Positions 3,397-25,764 of a stretch of 64,000 nucleotides of DNA are shown here, in pieces (the first letter of the stretch is position 1; each line of letters starts with the position of its first letter). Source of the stretch: a virus; the IMG/VR virus record IMGVR_UViG_3300025652_000047, positions 14,948 to 78,947 of that record. The stretch is one strand, 5' to 3'. A program made the position numbers and the translations under genes. The notes below the pieces were generated by a model. That model saw only the letters and a program-made list of their open reading frames with translations, was not told the origin of the DNA and searched no databases.

Positions 3397-4212
3397 TTAA
3401 AATGTAATTGGTTTGATTTCTGTTGCATCATCTGCTTGAGCTACAGCAGGACTTTCCCCTGTAAACTCTTGAAATTCAATACTAGTAGCTAATTTAATAG
3501 GATATCCAGCAGCTTCTTGAGTTGCTAACATCTTCTTAAATTGCTTCTTAGCATAGTTCATACTAGCCATGTGATAGAAACAGTTGTTTTTAGTAATTAT
3601 ATTCTGATAATTTCTAGTAGCACCTGTATCAGTCATTGTCTCTTTTACTCCAAAAGGTACAATCATAGTCATAGCATTATCATTAAATATCTTAACTAGA
3701 GAATCTAGACTAACTACATTTCCATTATAAATATTAGCTGGATTATATCCTACTTTATTTACTAGTTCATCTAAGAATAAAGTATCTTTATCTATACCTA
3801 ATCCTTGTTTGAAAAAAGATACTAATGATTCTTCACCTATAAAAGCTGGTCTTGAGATTTCCCCAAACCAAGCCATATTAGGATTAGAAGTAATAGCTGC
3901 TTCATCTACTCCCCAAGAGAAGTTACCTTTAGTACTAACAAATTGAGTTTTACCAGTACTAGATAACTGGGGAGTATTGCCCAATAAGAAATCTATTACT
4001 TGGTATCCTGCACTCTCATTATGTACTAGTATGCGTACTGGTTTTAAATTATTATCACCTATCGCATTGTAGGTCATATTTCTAGGATATCCTGTGATAG
4101 CCTCAAATTCTTCTGAAGTAGGGTTTACCTTTTTCAGGGTTACTTGTCCTAATCCCGTGTATTGAGAAAAGGTAGTAGTTGGTTCTTTACTTGTGTTAAT
4201 TCCTTGAATCAT
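3397..4212 (-). CDS. Putative single-stranded DNA-binding / replication protein (crAss-type)
   Basis: YTGLGQVTLKKVNPTSEE N-terminus; acidic tail ending in Phe (DDATEIKPITF); lies next to the AAA ATPase. Confidence 0.55.
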   Translation of the reverse strand: MIQGINTSKEPTTTFSQYTGLGQVTLKKVNPTSEEFEAITGYPRNMTYNAIGDNNLKPVRILVHNESAGYQVIDFLLGNTPQLSSTGKTQFVSTKGNFSWGVDEAAITSNPNMAWFGEISRPAFIGEESLVSFFKQGLGIDKDTLFLDELVNKVGYNPANIYNGNVVSLDSLVKIFNDNAMTMIVPFGVKETMTDTGATRNYQNIITKNNCFYHMASMNYAKKQFKKMLATQEAAGYPIKLATSIEFQEFTGESPAVAQADDATEIKPITF

Positions 4213-8001: not shown

Positions 8002-8637
8002 TTAAAGGTCGTTGTTTAATAATTTGTGAGAATATGCAGTTACTATACTCTTGAATCTTTCTGGTGCTCCTTCATGTTCAGGATGCCCTTGCACTGCTAA
8101 CATATGAGTTTCTGGATAGTATACTATTTCTGGTTCAATTTCTGGCTTTTCAAATCCATGAGGTAGTCCTTCGTATACTTTAGTTAACTCAGATGCAAAA
8201 GCTAATATCTTGTACTGATGTTTCTTTAAGTTAAAAGGATACATCATTTGATGGTGAGTACTAGTTACATCATAAGTTTCTTTAAAATGAGTATCTGTTA
8301 CAGGATGGATATAAGATTGTCCTCTTACATTTTGAATTAACTTACCACCTGAATATACTGTAGCAAGCTGTGCTCCTCTACAAATACCTAATATAGGTAA
8401 CTGTAAAACTATAGCTTTAGCTATTTCTTCACATTCATTGATATCTCTAGTAGGGTTATAACTAGTAGTTGGGTGTTTAGTTTCATTATATAGTGCTGGC
8501 ATTACATCTGCTCCACCTGTTAATATAACTATATCTGCTTTTTCTAAAGTATCTACTACAATTGAATTTTGGATTGCATTTTTATATGTAGACTCTCCAC
8601 CTATAATATATACATTAATATTGTTATTTTTACTCAT
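8002..8637 (-). CDS. Second class I glutamine amidotransferase / peptidase C26
   Basis: LTGGADV, GICRGAQ, STHHQMM, VQGHPE. Confidence 0.9.
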   Translation of the reverse strand: MSKNNNINVYIIGGESTYKNAIQNSIVVDTLEKADIVILTGGADVMPALYNETKHPTTSYNPTRDINECEEIAKAIVLQLPILGICRGAQLATVYSGGKLIQNVRGQSYIHPVTDTHFKETYDVTSTHHQMMYPFNLKKHQYKILAFASELTKVYEGLPHGFEKPEIEPEIVYYPETHMLAVQGHPEHEGAPERFKSIVTAYSHKLLNNDL

Positions 8638-15384: not shown

Positions 15385-15410
15385 TGTTATTTATTTAATG
15401 ATTAAAAAAA

Positions 15411-15559
15411 ATATACTCCTGTGGACTTGAACCACAATTAATAATAACTTCAGGATGTTCCCTGCATTTTATATTATACCATTGAACCTCTCAGTAAAGA
15501 GTCAGTTCTGGACTTATGACTTTGTTATTATTAACCTCGCACGTAAAGAGAGAGTATAC
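15411..15559 (-). ncRNA. tRNA-like element with the anticodon arm replaced by a long helix and insert
   Basis: 9-bp closing stem GTATACTCT/GGAGTATAT; perfect T-arm TGTGG-TTCAAGT-CCACA; 11-bp helix TTAATAATAAC/GTTATTATTAA. Confidence 0.55.
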
Positions 15560-16416
15560 ACTTGAACACTCTTGGAAACATTGTTTGTGTTAGCACCATC
15601 ATAATAGCTGAATCCTAGTCATTGAACAAGCCTATTGCACTATTATAATGGTCACGTAGATACATTAAAATTACAGGTCTTAAACAGGGTTTATGTAATG
15701 TTATTCCCTATGCGTCTGCACCTTTATCTACTTGCTGTAAACTCCTAAGTGTGTAAACTAATCAGCTCACTATTTATATTCTATCAACATATTACAATAC
15801 AGTTGATACACTTGAATGATTTATATACTAGATATGAGAATCTAAGCGATATTATTTTCAAACTCATTTTTAATTATGTTTCTAACAAACACACTCAAGT
15901 AATTTATATTCACTCTTCATTTAATTGCTTATGAAGGGTTTAAGTCTTCAATTGAGTCAATTAGGTGGTAGGTTTCACCTGCTAATTCATAAAATAGGTC
16001 ACGACCTTCGTCTGTCTACCTAGTCTACATGTTAATGCAGCTTACTTGAAAGCTTATACATTGGCGCATCAATAGGGACTTTCAGCCTATTAGATTAACT
16101 CCATTTATGCTTTGGATTCATGGATTCCCATGTATTATCTCCAATGTATAAGTAATAATACACTCAATGTCTTATGCAATTACCAGTCAATACTACTAGA
16201 GTACTGAATTTCTGCAACCTGCATAAGACGTAGATAAAGGTACACAAGCTGATCAGTGCTTACCCAACTCCGTTTTCCTCCCAATATCTACAGGAGTGTG
16301 TATAATACTATAACCAAACCTCATGGTTACTACGCATACTTAATTTTAGATGTGGTATATATTTTGTTGTATGTTCCACTTTTCCAATGTTGGTAGGTTA
16401 TAGTATATTAAATTTG
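15560..16416 (-). ncRNA. Candidate large structured RNA (about 850 nt)
   Basis: At least six 10-15 bp helices, including two spanning about 500 nt. The mismatches in these long helices are G.U only when read on the minus strand. Confidence 0.6.
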
Positions 16417-16466
16417 TAAGTGCTGAAGGACTCGAACCTCTATCTGCTACCTAACTAGCGCACTTA
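16417..16466 (-). ncRNA. Minimal anticodon-less tRNA-like element (50 nt)
   Basis: TAAGTGC/GCACTTA 7-bp acceptor; D-arm GCTA-GTTAGG-TAGC; T-arm GAGG-TTCGAGT-CCTT. Confidence 0.6.
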
Positions 16467-16782
16467 TGAACAACTACTTAAAATCGTAGCTGTTCGCTGA
16501 ATCTTGAGTCATTAAGACCCCATATATACTTACGAACATAGTATAGTATTTAGTAGTTAATGTTATGACCCTCTATAGATCAAGATTTCAATGCCTTTTA
16601 GCTTAGTCTAAGTATTAATACCTACATAGAATGTAAGCATAATACTCCACTAGCTAATACTGGTGAGGCTTATTACAACCTCATGGTTTATTGCCATTTG
16701 CAATTTACATGTGTAGAATTTTGCTATTCCATAGCAAAATTTGAGGGTGAACCCTACCCGTTTAAGGGTAGAGTTCTAGCCA

Positions 16783-17300: not shown

Positions 17301-17496
17301 TTATACTATATGTCGCTGGAAAACACGTAAAAAACAGCGGAGGGTATATTTTAGGCGACTATTTCGGCTATTTTTCTAATTTACAAATAATTAAATTTAG
17401 ATTTCCATTAATTTATTCTCATATAATAAGCTATACCCTAGGTGGTTATTGACTTTACGGTTAATTAATTTTTTTTAAAAATAATTGCTTAAAAAC

Positions 17497-17527
17497 TTGC
17501 ATATGTCAAATGTTTGTTTTATATTTA
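17497..17527 (+). promoter_or_regulatory. Bacteroidota sigma-ABfr-type promoter for the rightward arm
   Basis: TTG (17497-99), 20-nt spacer, then TATATTTA, one mismatch from the -7 consensus TAnnTTTG; AT-rich upstream. Confidence 0.5.
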
Positions 17528-17874
17528 CATCTGTTATATTAGTTCAACTACTAATTACATCTTGGTTAATAGCATCTATCCTTATAGAAAGCACAAGATC
17601 AGAAGTTGGGTTGTAGGCTATGCTCTTGAGATAATAGAGGAACATAATGGCTAAGATGTCCCCAATAATAACAAAAATTGCCTGTATATAATACTTAGGG
17701 AGGAATAATACTAAGGGTTGATATAGAAGTACCTCTGTGGGTGTAGGATTAAGTTCTAACGTACAGTAAGTGGAAATTACAGGTTAATATCGGATTTAAG
17801 AAATTAGATCTCAAAAAAGATAAAAATTTTTAGGGGGATTCTTGAGTTTAGTTAAGAACAAAAAATATAAGATT

Positions 17875-18258
17875 ATGGAATTAAATTTATTAAACAAGCG
17901 GTTAAGTGACAAGACTAGCAAGGATGTTAGTGAGTTACAATTTTACAGGTATTTTTTACTTATATTAAATGAGTCCCAGGGTATATTAACTACTAAGCAG
18001 TTGGATATGGTATCTTATATGATGTCTAAGGGTACTTCTTTTAAATGCAAGGGTAGTGGCATATTAGACATTATGAATAAGGAGTTGTACATGAGTAAGC
18101 AGCATATATCAAATGTTAGGAGTCAGTTAATAAAGAAGGAGATAATTAACGAGGACGGTAGTTTATCTAAGTTATTTGCGCCTTTAGTGCATTTAGTGGA
18201 CCAAAAGAGAGAGATTAAATTAGTATTACCAATGAAGATTAAAGAAAATGAGTATTAG
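17875..18258 (+). CDS. Putative winged-helix/HTH DNA-binding protein
   Basis: LTTKQLDMVSY...MSKQHISNVRSQLIKKEII; the ATG at 17875 is preferred over the TTG at 17842. Confidence 0.55.
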   Translation: MELNLLNKRLSDKTSKDVSELQFYRYFLLILNESQGILTTKQLDMVSYMMSKGTSFKCKGSGILDIMNKELYMSKQHISNVRSQLIKKEIINEDGSLSKLFAPLVHLVDQKREIKLVLPMKIKENEY

Positions 18259-22271: not shown

Positions 22272-22343
22272 GGCTTAGTAGCTCAACTGGAAGAGCCCTA
22301 CCTTTTAAGTAGGAAGATATAGGTTCGACTCCTATCTAAGCCA
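22272..22343 (+). tRNA. tRNA-Lys (anticodon TTT); no encoded CCA
   Basis: Acceptor GGCTTAG/CTAAGCC; D-arm GCTC/GAGC; anticodon arm CCTAC-CTTTTAA-GTAGG; T-arm ATAGG-TTCGACT-CCTAT. Position 26 appears to be missing. Confidence 0.85.
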
Positions 22344-22368
22344 CAATAATATAACGTATGAAAAACGT

Positions 22369-25300
22369 ATGAAAGAATATAAACATTGGAATTGTGGGCA
22401 GCCTGACTGGATAAAGATAGATAATATAAAAGAATTTAATCTAGATGAGGTAAAGATATTCCACCCACAAGATCCTAGATATGTAGAGTATTGGAAGCAA
22501 GAGAAGAAGTACTGTATAGAAGGCAGGTGGGAAAGACAATTTGGAGGATGGATGCATATGCCAGGTTGTTTATATTTCTATGGTAAGTTTGGTATAATTG
22601 TAGATACAGACAAGTTTACAAAAGTAACTGAAAAAATTAAACCCCTAATCCAGGACTTAGAGTTTGAACAAGCTTTTATGTTTTGGGAAGCTAGGGGTTT
22701 TTCTGGGTATATAGATGACGATGAATATACCTCAGATAACATGTGGTTCAAATTCAATGAGAAAGGATTACCTACCACAGAAGAGATAGAGAAAATGGGA
22801 GATTCCCAAAGAACTGCAGTTCTTAACCTTATAAATAATAATGGTAATTTAAAGGAATATCTAACACCAAGAAAGAATTTAAGAAGAATTGCAGAGAAGC
22901 CTTTAGGTAGACCTTTGTTTCAAAATGATGCAAAGAATAAAGATACTATGGGTTGTCATGCTAAAGATAGTAAATTTAGAATGTATGATGGTTCTGTTAA
23001 AGAAGTATTTGATATAAAAATTGGGGATGCTTTAATGGGTCCCGATAGTTCTCCAAGAGAAGTTAATGAAATATTAACTGGAGAGAATGTTATGGTTAAA
23101 ATTACTCCTAAATATGGAGACGCTTTTAAAATAACTCCAAATCATATTCTTAGAGTTAGGGAAACTAATAAACATACAAATGAAAAATTAGAATATGATT
23201 TACCTGTTTGGGAATATTTAAACAAATCAGATTCTAAAAAATCATTTATAGAAATAATAGATAGAAATAAAATTGAATATCCTGAAGTACCTTTAGTTTT
23301 AGACCCTTACTTTATAGGACTATGGTTAGGAGATGGGTTTAAAAGAGAGAAATTAATATGTATTAATCAAGGTAAAGATAAAGAAATTTTAAATTGGTTA
23401 TTAGAATATTGTAACTCTAAAGATAATTTGTCATATACTACTTCCGTATCTAAAAACGGTTTATCAAATGGTTTTACAACTAGATTTAGATTAACAGATT
23501 CTAATTTATCAGGTAAAGGAAATTATTGGGCTAAAACTTTTAGAAATAACAAACACATACCTAATGAGTATCTTATTAATAGTTTAGATAATAGATTAAA
23601 ATTATTAGCAGGGTATATTGATTCTGATGGATGTTACGAAAAAAAATCAAATAGATATACAATTACGTCTGTAGATTTAGATTTATTAACCCAAACGCAA
23701 GAGTTAGCAAGATCCTGTGGATTTAGAGCAGAGATAAATAAACCTAGTAAAACTGGTATTACTGATTCTTTAAAATATAACTTAAGAATTATAGGAGATA
23801 TTAATTCTATTCCAGTGAAATTAAGTTATAAAAAAGCAACAGGAATTAGAGAAAAATTCCATAGAAATACATTTACAACTCAAGTATTACCTCCTGAAAA
23901 GTTCTATGGAGTAGAAGTTGATAAAGATCATTTGTATATGCTTGCTGATGGTAACAAAGATCACAACAGTAGGGGTGGAGGTAAGAGTTTCTTTGAAGCT
24001 GTTGCAGTCCAACTATATACTTTAACTTTTGATGGGGCTACAGAGTATATTATAGATCAAGTACAAAAGGTTGAGACTTGTATAGGTTCAGGAGATACTG
24101 ATAAGTCAGGAGAACTTGTACAGAAAGTAGTAGATGCAATGAATGAGTTTGCTATTAACCCTAAGCTAGGAGCATGGGGACAACAGGGAGACTCTGACTG
24201 GACTCCTAATCCTTTTTATAGGGATATGAATGGACCAACTAACGCAGGTAACAAGCAAAAAGGAGGTTGGGTACATAAGTACGAGAAGAAGATTAATGGT
24301 AGATGGGTAGATGGATTTGGAACAGGAACAAGAATGTTTCATGTATCTTACTCTTCAAATAAGAAAGCAGGAGCAGAAGCAGGAGCTGGAGGTAGATATA
24401 ATGTATCTACAGTAGAGGAAAAAGGTTTAACTATATTACTTATAATGTTGTGGAACTCAAATAGAGCCACAGTAATGAGAAATGGAGTTCAATTTGGAGT
24501 ACAATCTTTCTTAGGAACATCTGGTAATGCAGAACTAGTATTACCTTCAAAAGAGATGTTTACTACTCCTCATGAATTTAACCTAGTAGCTTATCCTGAT
24601 GTATGGGAAGGCACTGGAGATCTAGGATTCTTTATACCTGCGTATATGACGTATAGGCAATTTAAAGATGTAAATGGAAATACAGATGTTAAAGCAGCGA
24701 GAGAGCATTGGTTAAAAGGGTATTTAGCAGCAGGAGAATCTGCAAACCCTAAGACTCTTAGGATGTACTGTATGAATTATCCTGATATACCATCTCATAT
24801 GTGGGTAACAGATGCTCAGTATCTTTTACCTTATGAAGAAGCTATAGATAGAGAGAGGCATTTAATGGATAAGAAGTTATACCAAACCATAGGTACTGCT
24901 ATAGATTTAAGATGGGATACTTCAAAACAGAATGGAGTTACTTATGATATAGTACATAATCCACAGCCTTTCTATGATTTTCCAATTAGGAAGGATATGG
25001 AAAGGATGGATGGAGAAATAATGATGTATCAGACTCCACAAGAGATTAGAGGAGTTGTACCTAATGATATGTATTTCTTTGTACATGATCCATATGTATC
25101 AGATAACCAAGAAGACGGGGCTTCATTAGGGGTAACCTATGGATTTTTAAATCCTAAATATTCAGTAACACATGATGGAAGTCAATTAGTATGTTCATAT
25201 ATAGGAAAGCCAAAAGGAGGAAAAAAAGCATATTATCAAAATTTAGAGAAGTTATTAGCTTTCTACGGCAATCCCTTTAGGGGACTAGCATATGAAGCAA

Positions 25301-25764
25301 ACAGAGGAGAGTACTGTAGGTCTTATTTCGAGAAGAAAGGGAAACTACATTTACTAGCTTTAAGACCACAGCATGCAAAGGGAGATGGCATATACGAAAA
25401 AAATGTTACTCAATTTGGATATATGGTTGGAGCTAGAGGAGCAATAGGTAAATTAACTATGGTAGATGATACTAATGATTTTTTATTATCAGATGTAGTT
25501 AGGAGTAATGGTACAAATAAATTAATTGAGACTATACCTTGTATATTTTTAATTAGACAAATAGCACAGTTTACATTGAATGGTAACTTTGATGCAGTAT
25601 CATCTTTAATTTTAGTACCTACATTTATTTCAGAACAAGAGTCCTATATGACTCAAATTAGAAAACAAAAAGAAACAAACAGATTACAGTTTTTATCAAC
25701 AAATAGCGCAATACATGACAAGAATAATAGACACAAAGGAAAAGGTATTAACAGGCTTATCTAA
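22369..25764 (+). CDS. terL: Terminase large subunit (intein-containing; about 793 aa after splicing)
   Basis: Spliced Walker A region TMG|SRGGGKS; VEE Walker B; GTSG; nuclease motifs HDPY, YEAN and NFDAVS; crAss-like size and position. Confidence 0.9.
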   Translation: MKEYKHWNCGQPDWIKIDNIKEFNLDEVKIFHPQDPRYVEYWKQEKKYCIEGRWERQFGGWMHMPGCLYFYGKFGIIVDTDKFTKVTEKIKPLIQDLEFEQAFMFWEARGFSGYIDDDEYTSDNMWFKFNEKGLPTTEEIEKMGDSQRTAVLNLINNNGNLKEYLTPRKNLRRIAEKPLGRPLFQNDAKNKDTMGCHAKDSKFRMYDGSVKEVFDIKIGDALMGPDSSPREVNEILTGENVMVKITPKYGDAFKITPNHILRVRETNKHTNEKLEYDLPVWEYLNKSDSKKSFIEIIDRNKIEYPEVPLVLDPYFIGLWLGDGFKREKLICINQGKDKEILNWLLEYCNSKDNLSYTTSVSKNGLSNGFTTRFRLTDSNLSGKGNYWAKTFRNNKHIPNEYLINSLDNRLKLLAGYIDSDGCYEKKSNRYTITSVDLDLLTQTQELARSCGFRAEINKPSKTGITDSLKYNLRIIGDINSIPVKLSYKKATGIREKFHRNTFTTQVLPPEKFYGVEVDKDHLYMLADGNKDHNSRGGGKSFFEAVAVQLYTLTFDGATEYIIDQVQKVETCIGSGDTDKSGELVQKVVDAMNEFAINPKLGAWGQQGDSDWTPNPFYRDMNGPTNAGNKQKGGWVHKYEKKINGRWVDGFGTGTRMFHVSYSSNKKAGAEAGAGGRYNVSTVEEKGLTILLIMLWNSNRATVMRNGVQFGVQSFLGTSGNAELVLPSKEMFTTPHEFNLVAYPDVWEGTGDLGFFIPAYMTYRQFKDVNGNTDVKAAREHWLKGYLAAGESANPKTLRMYCMNYPDIPSHMWVTDAQYLLPYEEAIDRERHLMDKKLYQTIGTAIDLRWDTSKQNGVTYDIVHNPQPFYDFPIRKDMERMDGEIMMYQTPQEIRGVVPNDMYFFVHDPYVSDNQEDGASLGVTYGFLNPKYSVTHDGSQLVCSYIGKPKGGKKAYYQNLEKLLAFYGNPFRGLAYEANRGEYCRSYFEKKGKLHLLALRPQHAKGDGIYEKNVTQFGYMVGARGAIGKLTMVDDTNDFLLSDVVRSNGTNKLIETIPCIFLIRQIAQFTLNGNFDAVSSLILVPTFISEQESYMTQIRKQKETNRLQFLSTNSAIHDKNNRHKGKGINRLI
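22954..23967 (+). mobile_element. Intein with LAGLIDADG homing endonuclease (338 aa)
   Basis: Starts CHAKDSKFRMYDG and ends DHN|S; block B TPNH; LAGLIDADG motifs FIGLWLGDG and LLAGYIDSDG. Confidence 0.92.

Follow-up and report, generated by a model that had tools for sequence, protein, structure and literature searches.

A lineage-specific, tRNA-derived 50-nt fold in a non-coding tract of an uncultured marine crAss-like phage

Plant mitochondria carry t-elements, which were found by a screen for the motif GGTTCRANYCC and whose borders are RNase P and RNase Z cuts; they are sometimes freed as small RNAs with added C or A residues (Forner et al. 2007, PMC1920247). In M. smegmatis YrlA, a 7-bp acceptor stem made the RNA a substrate for RNase P and for CCA addition (PMC4201824), and in MALAT1 a tRNA-like fold, mascRNA, lets RNase P and RNase Z fix where the long non-coding RNA ends (PMC12941219). 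Among phages, T5 encodes RNA1 and RNA2 (NC_005859, 30501-30644 and 32959-33083), which are annotated as "tRNA-like stable RNA with unknown functions"; GOLLD and ROOL, large and ornate phage-associated RNAs, often lie near tRNAs (PMC5737381). Our search of the full-text literature found no paper on anticodon-arm-less mini-tRNAs in phages, nor on the use of such RNA punctuation by phages.

We analysed a window of 64,000 nt (bases 14948-78947) from an IMG/VR viral contig of 78.9 kb, with an estimated completeness of 71% and a GC content of about 32%. The contig carries phage-like genes (a family-A DNA polymerase, a large terminase and a GroEL-like gene). By polymerase its closest cultured relatives are crAss-like phages, at about 25% identity, and the polymerase search also returned closer uncultured relatives from marine metagenomes, TARA among them; the carrier of the element described here is an uncultured marine crAss-like phage. 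Genes lie on the minus strand left of about 15.4 kb and on the plus strand right of about 17.8 kb. The replication module includes two Peptidase_C26/GATase paralogues (73-1609 and 8002-8637, minus) and a phiEco32-like COOH-NH2 ligase. The large terminase ORF (22369-25764, plus; 1131 aa) gives matches in two blocks, residues ~211-490 and 612-1113, a pattern that suggests an inserted domain or intein.

Between an ORF of 105 aa (17100-16783, minus) and one of 123 aa (15384-15013, minus) lies a 1.4-kb tract with no credible or hidden ORF under code 11, code 4 or with TAG read as Q; the rest of the genome is tightly packed, yet this stretch has been kept non-coding. Its fold z is -4.1 on the minus strand versus -1.9 on the plus strand, and Rfam matched no family in it, even at E<=10. 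No tRNA-processing or Ro60 genes were recognised among the early-module genes, and we recognised no defence-related gene near the element. BLAST of the tract region against phage records gave a single 55-nt match, to a Chryseobacterium phage, which falls outside the ORF-free tract (~17472-17526). The neighbouring non-coding leader, a divergent-promoter region (17347-17900), is 78% identical over about 550 nt to the related contigs L002 and L006, and is far better conserved than the adjoining small ORFs.

The tract contains a 50-nt element that folds as a mini-tRNA-like three-way junction (Table 1). The initial annotation had placed its sequence and three helices on the minus strand; these proved exact, and the RNAfold minimum free energy (MFE) structure agrees with them. 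Its helices contain only standard pairs, 14 of the 15 being Watson-Crick and the remaining one G-U, and the GC content is 46%, versus about 32% for the genome. Taken alone, the 50-mer has this junction as its MFE structure at -12.8 kcal/mol, with a z of only -1.4; the same junction is the MFE structure of a 121-mer (RNAfold, z -3.1) and is also present in both the MFE and the centroid structures of a 941-nt context, where it forms a separate domain between other stable hairpin domains. Its geometry is non-canonical, with a 4-bp T-stem that reaches five pairs only by counting an A.C mismatch, a 2-nt bulge between T-stem and acceptor stem, A at -1 and U at +1. Relative to a tRNA it differs by at least three indels: the 8/9 linker is missing, one arm is missing, and the CA bulge has been added.

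Table 1. Positions, strands and defining traits of the 50-nt element, its parts and the associated features of the window.
Feature	Position	Strand	Remarks
ORF-free tract, 1.4 kb	15385..16782	minus	strand of early and replication genes; contains the 50-nt element
147-nt tRNA-shaped RNA, 3' end of the non-coding tract	15412..15558	minus	compensatory pairs
~105-nt structured RNA, closed by a 12-bp stem	16053..16152	minus	conserved in L002 ~3700-3802 (+)
Mini-tRNA-like three-way junction, 50 nt	16417..16466	minus	RNAfold, motif statistics
Closing/acceptor-like stem, 7 Watson-Crick pairs	16466-16460 / 16423-16417	minus	
Hairpin 1, GCTA-GTTAGG-TAGC, 4 bp, loop GUUAGG	16459-16446	minus	
Linker AGAUA	16445-16441	minus	
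T-arm GAGG-UUCGAGU-CCUU, 4 pairs including one G-U	16440-16426	minus	
T-arm motif GGTTCGAGTCC	16438-16428	minus	
CA bulge	16425-16424	minus	
Upstream hairpin, one base upstream of the element, 10-bp stem, 8-nt loop GAUUUUAA	16468..16495	minus	
tRNA-Lys(UUU), the contig's only tRNA	22272..22344	plus	just upstream of the terminase gene

The element is not a tRNA. As had been expected of it, tRNA finders pass it over: ARAGORN with its default settings and Rfam RF00005, whether at gathering score or at E<=10, are silent at this site, and the tRNA-Lys(UUU) is all that they report. Only at the 80% threshold does ARAGORN make a call, "tRNA-???" with a 2-nt anticodon, at 16416-16479. Features of RF00005 that the element shares are the 7-bp acceptor stem and a T-arm with the GGTTCRANYCC motif, and those that it lacks are a 7-nt anticodon loop (the loop of hairpin 1 has 6 nt) and the U8/N9 linker. 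The anticodon arm, annotated as absent, is indeed missing, in that there is no 7-nt anticodon loop and only five nucleotides (AGAUA) separate hairpin 1 from the T-stem. The absence of CCA was also correctly recorded and is uninformative, as the phage's own tRNA-Lys gene likewise has no encoded CCA and is followed by CAA.

Related families gave a similar picture. An ARAGORN tmRNA search of the window and of the whole contig found none. YrlA (RF02553) had no Rfam match, and the TROVE domain is absent from the contig in a search that found its positive controls. Like t-elements, this RNA has a non-canonical tRNA-like fold with the T-arm motif on the same strand as the flanking genes; the structured middle domain of ~60-90 nt seen in T5 RNA1 and RNA2 is lacking in its 50 nt. 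Several more elaborate constructions were tried and rejected. For a full-length decayed tRNA with an upstream 5' strand, the best candidate strands, TAAGTAT and TAGGTAT, would pair with an A.C mismatch, and ARAGORN makes no call when introns are allowed; for a split, permuted or intron-containing tRNA, the arm order is no cyclic permutation. The 3' strand of the 147-nt RNA, taken as a split-tRNA partner, does not pair with the element's 5' strand, and likeness to that RNA, as expected of a trimmed paralogue, ends by inspection at the T-loop.

The fold is not random. GGTTCRANTCC occurs four times in the window versus 0.07 expected: in the tRNA-Lys, in the 50-nt element, in the tRNA-like RNA 1 kb downstream and inside a 770-aa ORF. 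A descriptor combining a 4-bp T-stem, the loop TTCRANY and a 7-bp closure, 44-62 nt in total, matches the 78.9-kb genome at this site only, and matches 300 dinucleotide-shuffled genomes at 0.007 per genome (0 of 300 when the inner hairpin is required). The descriptor was designed after the element was known, which makes these figures generous, yet they leave a wide margin. Relaxed to 40-62 nt with as many as two G-U pairs and an optional inner hairpin, the descriptor gave two matches in 0.65 Mb of DNA from other phages and metagenomes, and the one examined lies inside a tRNA-Ser gene.

We conclude that the element is a real, tRNA-derived fold specific to its lineage, and its likeness to the phage's own tRNA-Lys indicates where its parts may have come from. 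In a Smith-Waterman comparison of the tRNA-Lys with the tract, the best match falls on the element (score 31 versus 18.5 +/- 2.2 for shuffles), and a covariance model of the element also picks the variable loop and T-arm of the tRNA-Lys (AGAUAuAGGUUCGAcUCCU), 17 of whose 20 positions are identical. Among 136 phage tRNAs, this tRNA-Lys stands near the top in likeness to the 3' part of the element, a ranking that is no more than suggestive, since the T-loop is common to any tRNA. The hairpin directly upstream adds a second resemblance, one absent from the initial annotation: its core CTAC-GA-TTTTAAGTAG corresponds to CTAC-C-TTTTAAGTAG in the anticodon arm of the tRNA-Lys(UUU), and the pattern CTAC-...-TTTTAAGTAG occurs in the window only at these two places, with 0.01 expected. 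As a plain local alignment the hairpin's likeness to tRNA-Lys is within the shuffle range, and its weight derives from the fact that the hairpin adjoins a tRNA body without an anticodon loop. The tRNA-Lys is likely the source or sister of the element's variable-loop/T-arm segment (AGATAtAGGTTCGAcTCCT) and of the upstream hairpin. In the cellular and viral genomes searched, we found no parent tRNA with this D-type hairpin or with this combination of T-arm and acceptor stem.

The origin of hairpin 1 is less clear-cut. The initial annotation had called it a D-arm with a GG loop; the GG-containing hairpin is there, and the label is ambiguous, with an anticodon arm aligning about as well. Contig L020, whose polymerase identity is only 27%, carries a 66-nt tRNA-like sequence (641-706, plus) with a 7-bp acceptor stem, a GG D-arm, a T-arm and a 3-bp "anticodon" stem, for which ARAGORN makes no call. 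A 13-mer, AGTGCGCTAGTTA, is identical between this sequence and the element, and has a different structural role in L020, where it covers the 3' strand of the D-stem, position 26 and the 5' strand of the anticodon stem; in addition, TTAGGTAG is common to the L020 D-loop and the element's hairpin 1. Because of these two likenesses, hairpin 1 is not cleanly assignable to the D-arm or to the anticodon arm, and a safe wording for the element is "one arm missing and no anticodon loop".

The relatives of this phage comprise contigs L002, L003, L004 (identical matches here) and L006, at 76-77% polymerase identity, as well as more distant phages, and neither BLAST, the covariance model nor a T-arm scan found the element in them. 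The covariance model returned no homologue besides the element itself in 29 sources, and nothing in two relatives searched whole (99 kb and 71 kb), which also contain no tRNA genes. Pattern scans aimed at the element or at a parent tRNA, six in IMG/VR and two in GTDB genomes, likewise yielded no homologue: some gave no match at all, one gave mostly ordinary tRNAs and a few uncalled T-arm sequences unlike the element, another a single match (L063) that is likely chance, a further one unrelated tRNA-like 3' pieces, and yet another a jumbo-phage fragment in which a D-arm and a T-arm stand without a closing stem. Since the element and the tRNA-Lys are both missing from the relatives, both are specific to the lineage of the window. 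Decay of an ordinary tRNA, for which complete tRNAs at homologous loci had been proposed as the sign, finds no such counterpart, as nothing tRNA-like stands at these loci in the closest relatives.

The 105-aa protein beside the element matches only itself, on 7 contigs of up to 109.8 kb, this one possibly among them; a search of IMG/VR for relatives through this ORF found none, its homologue in L002 has only 28.6% identity, and the other small ORFs have no homologues. The small genes around the element are thus not conserved, which implies high turnover in the region. Two further kinds of tRNA-like sequence came to light in other contigs. On jumbo-phage contig L074 (1843-1890, minus), and identically on L076 and L077, a canonical D-arm is followed by 10 nt and then a T-arm, with no anticodon arm, no closing acceptor stem and no ARAGORN call. 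The unrelated viral contigs L043 (~3490-3560, plus) and L054 (~1500-1575, plus) have in common an RNA-like stretch with tandem T-arm-like motifs, GTTCGAGTC ... AGGTAGC ... GGTTCGAGTCC, which is not called as tRNA.

The closest relatives keep the RNAs that neighbour the element, without the element itself. The acceptor stem of the 147-nt RNA has 8 bp and ends in U.G; a small D-like hairpin and a long arm around ~75 nt come next, and the 3' part holds a T-arm (UGUGG-UUCAAGU-CCACA) followed by a U-run. Copies lie in L002 (5667-5805, plus) and L006 (5001-5136, plus), and each copy has an ORF of ~124 aa just downstream and a U-run at its end. Two-sided changes with pairing kept affect 3 of 8 acceptor pairs, 4 of the 5 in the T-stem and one where the long arm begins, at least eight in all; these were read directly from the sequences, because MAFFT alignments of the family mis-register the acceptor stem. 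The RNA is conserved across phages although the adjacent proteins are not. A Leu-type tRNA-like gene on contig L011 (6316-6454, plus; polymerase identity 38%) has a true Leu D-arm, is called tRNA-Leu(CAA) by ARAGORN only with a 51-nt insert after position 37, and resembles T5 RNA1.

The ~105-nt RNA is 74% identical to its counterpart in L002, with double substitutions that preserve pairing at 6 of 29 predicted pairs, and is the sole other part of the tract conserved in L002; it has no Rfam match, and BLAST finds none in L006. This bears on the "large RNA" at whose 5' boundary the initial annotation had placed the element, which is conserved in relatives only as this ~105-nt core.

We suggest, with a probability of roughly 0.4, that the element is a module of tRNA origin, akin to t-elements, at which RNase P and 3' tRNA-processing enzymes cut. 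It would be co-transcribed on the minus strand with the early genes; from the 105-aa ORF down to the element we found no convincing or strong intrinsic terminator. The part recognised by maturation enzymes is retained, in that a 7-bp acceptor-like stem stacks on a T-arm whose loop is the canonical UUCGAGU, and the GG-containing hairpin could close the elbow. Decoding is impossible. Host RNase P would cut between A16467 and U16466 and remove the upstream hairpin together with the message of the 105-aa ORF, and a 3' activity (RNase Z, or RNase E with exonucleases) would cut near 16417/16416. The two cuts together would free an RNA of ~50 nt and determine where the structured RNAs downstream begin. 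We infer transcription through the element, both cleavages and any benefit to the phage; by analogy with M. smegmatis YrlA (PMC4201824) and t-elements (PMC1920247), we consider processing the likeliest fate of such a transcript.

Processing is supported by a fold that is the MFE structure in all contexts, by a motif and a composite descriptor beyond chance, by helices left whole in spite of the indels, and by placement on the early-gene strand; it is also favoured by the character of the tract as an RNA island, in which two other structures show compensatory changes in relatives. Counting against it are the lack of a homologue, the non-canonical geometry, the weak z of the 50-mer and the fact that the relatives manage without the element. 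As a single unconserved copy, the element makes a case that we regard as suggestive rather than compelling.

The element could instead be a non-functional relic, a rearranged and part-deleted copy of a tRNA or tRNA-like gene, stranded in a hypervariable cassette region after being acquired along with the tRNA-Lys or duplicated from it. This is the main rival, a serious possibility though a somewhat less probable one. In its favour, the element is lineage-specific (it is missing at 76-77% polymerase identity, and neither of the relatives searched whole has a tRNA), sits among unconserved small genes of high turnover, and shows non-canonical junctions and pieces that look scrambled, with the anticodon-arm copy outside the body and the L020 13-mer AGTGCGCTAGTTA in another role. 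Long neutral decay is nevertheless disfavoured, because none of the 15 pairs is broken, although at least three indels separate the element from a tRNA; together with a GC content well above that of the genome, this is unexpected after several indels under neutral drift. By our own estimate a 7-bp closure is only ~3-4% likely unselected, and the retention of 1.4 kb of non-coding sequence in an otherwise tightly packed genome also counts against a relic.

We consider it improbable that the element is an uncleaved domain of a longer non-coding RNA, a T-loop/elbow module for tertiary contact or protein binding within the 1.4-kb island. Its separate standing among stable hairpin domains in the 941-nt fold and the better folding of the minus strand agree with such a role, as does the tendency of GOLLD- and ROOL-type RNAs to lie near tRNAs (PMC5737381). 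The tract, however, matches no Rfam family, the relatives conserve the ~105-nt core and the 147-nt RNA and not one long RNA, and RNase P could hardly be kept away from an exposed 7-bp acceptor stem with its T-arm.

The prospect is slim that the element acts as a decoy or sponge for a tRNA-binding host factor, its body mimicking elbow and acceptor and the upstream hairpin the tRNA-Lys(UUU) anticodon stem-loop. The target would be a tRNA-Lys-directed anticodon nuclease or another tRNA-targeting defence, with the phage supplying its own tRNA-Lys. Defences of the PrrC and PARIS types attack tRNA-Lys, and a tRNA of phage T5 counteracts PARIS. The copy of the tRNA-Lys anticodon arm in the upstream hairpin would suit such a role, as would the presence of tRNA-Lys(UUU) as the sole tRNA of this phage and its absence from relatives; but the hairpin loop has 8 nt, not 7, the hairpin's likeness is insignificant as a plain local alignment, the predicted RNase P cut would part the two halves, no defence-related gene is recognised nearby, and there is no homologue elsewhere. 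Slimmer still is the specific version in which 16495-16417, a unit of 79 nt, mimics tRNA-Lys(UUU) in two parts and is expressed early, with an anticodon-stem-loop bait fused to an elbow-and-acceptor body. If this were true, the mimic would occupy or mislead a tRNA-Lys-directed host nuclease while the lineage-specific tRNA-Lys sustains translation. Finally, a chance fold in AT-rich non-coding DNA, with which the weak z of the isolated 50-mer would agree, is very improbable, being effectively refuted by the motif and descriptor statistics and contradicted by the element's resemblance to the phage's own tRNA-Lys.

If RNase P and 3' tRNA enzymes do cut the element, as we favour, this phage would be punctuating its RNA with a minimal tRNA top half, in a manner documented for mitochondria and MALAT1. 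The element and the two conserved RNAs make up a compact RNA island, which is a tractable site for asking what roles non-decoding tRNA look-alikes have in phages.

Set beside known systems, the element has in common with canonical tRNA, and with the phage's own tRNA-Lys, the 7-bp acceptor stem, the UUCGAGU T-loop, the GG hairpin and the variable-loop/T-arm segment (17/20), and departs from them in having no 7-nt anticodon loop or U8/N9, a CA bulge and a 4-bp T-stem. T5 RNA1 and RNA2 resemble it in being phage-encoded and non-decoding, with acceptor stem, D-type hairpin and T-arm; they differ in length (125-144 nt), in their elaborate middle domain and in lying inside a tRNA cluster, and have no sequence likeness to the element beyond the T-loop. 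It is the 147-nt RNA (15558-15412) that follows the design of T5 RNA1, middle domain included, a design common also to L011 6316-6454. The bacterial and phage YrlA Y RNAs likewise combine T-arm, D-arm and acceptor-like stem without decoding, but YrlA ends in a Ro60-binding stem and its gene lies beside that for Ro60, whereas the element has another topology, no TROVE/Ro60 gene and no Rfam match.

mascRNA and the NEAT1 tRNA-like element are eukaryotic and nuclear, lie 3' of their long RNAs and keep an anticodon-like stem. The likeness to mascRNA put forward in the initial annotation holds for a tRNA-like fold at the boundary of a long RNA and fails on placement, the element being 5' of the proposed RNA and mascRNA 3'. 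Plant t-elements differ in being organellar and in their mostly cloverleaf-like four-arm outline, in contrast to a 50-nt three-way junction without an anticodon loop; their cleavage is documented, that of the element predicted. Like the element, they are non-canonical tRNA-like folds inside longer transcripts, and the motif by which they were found, GGTTCRANYCC, is one that the element carries too.
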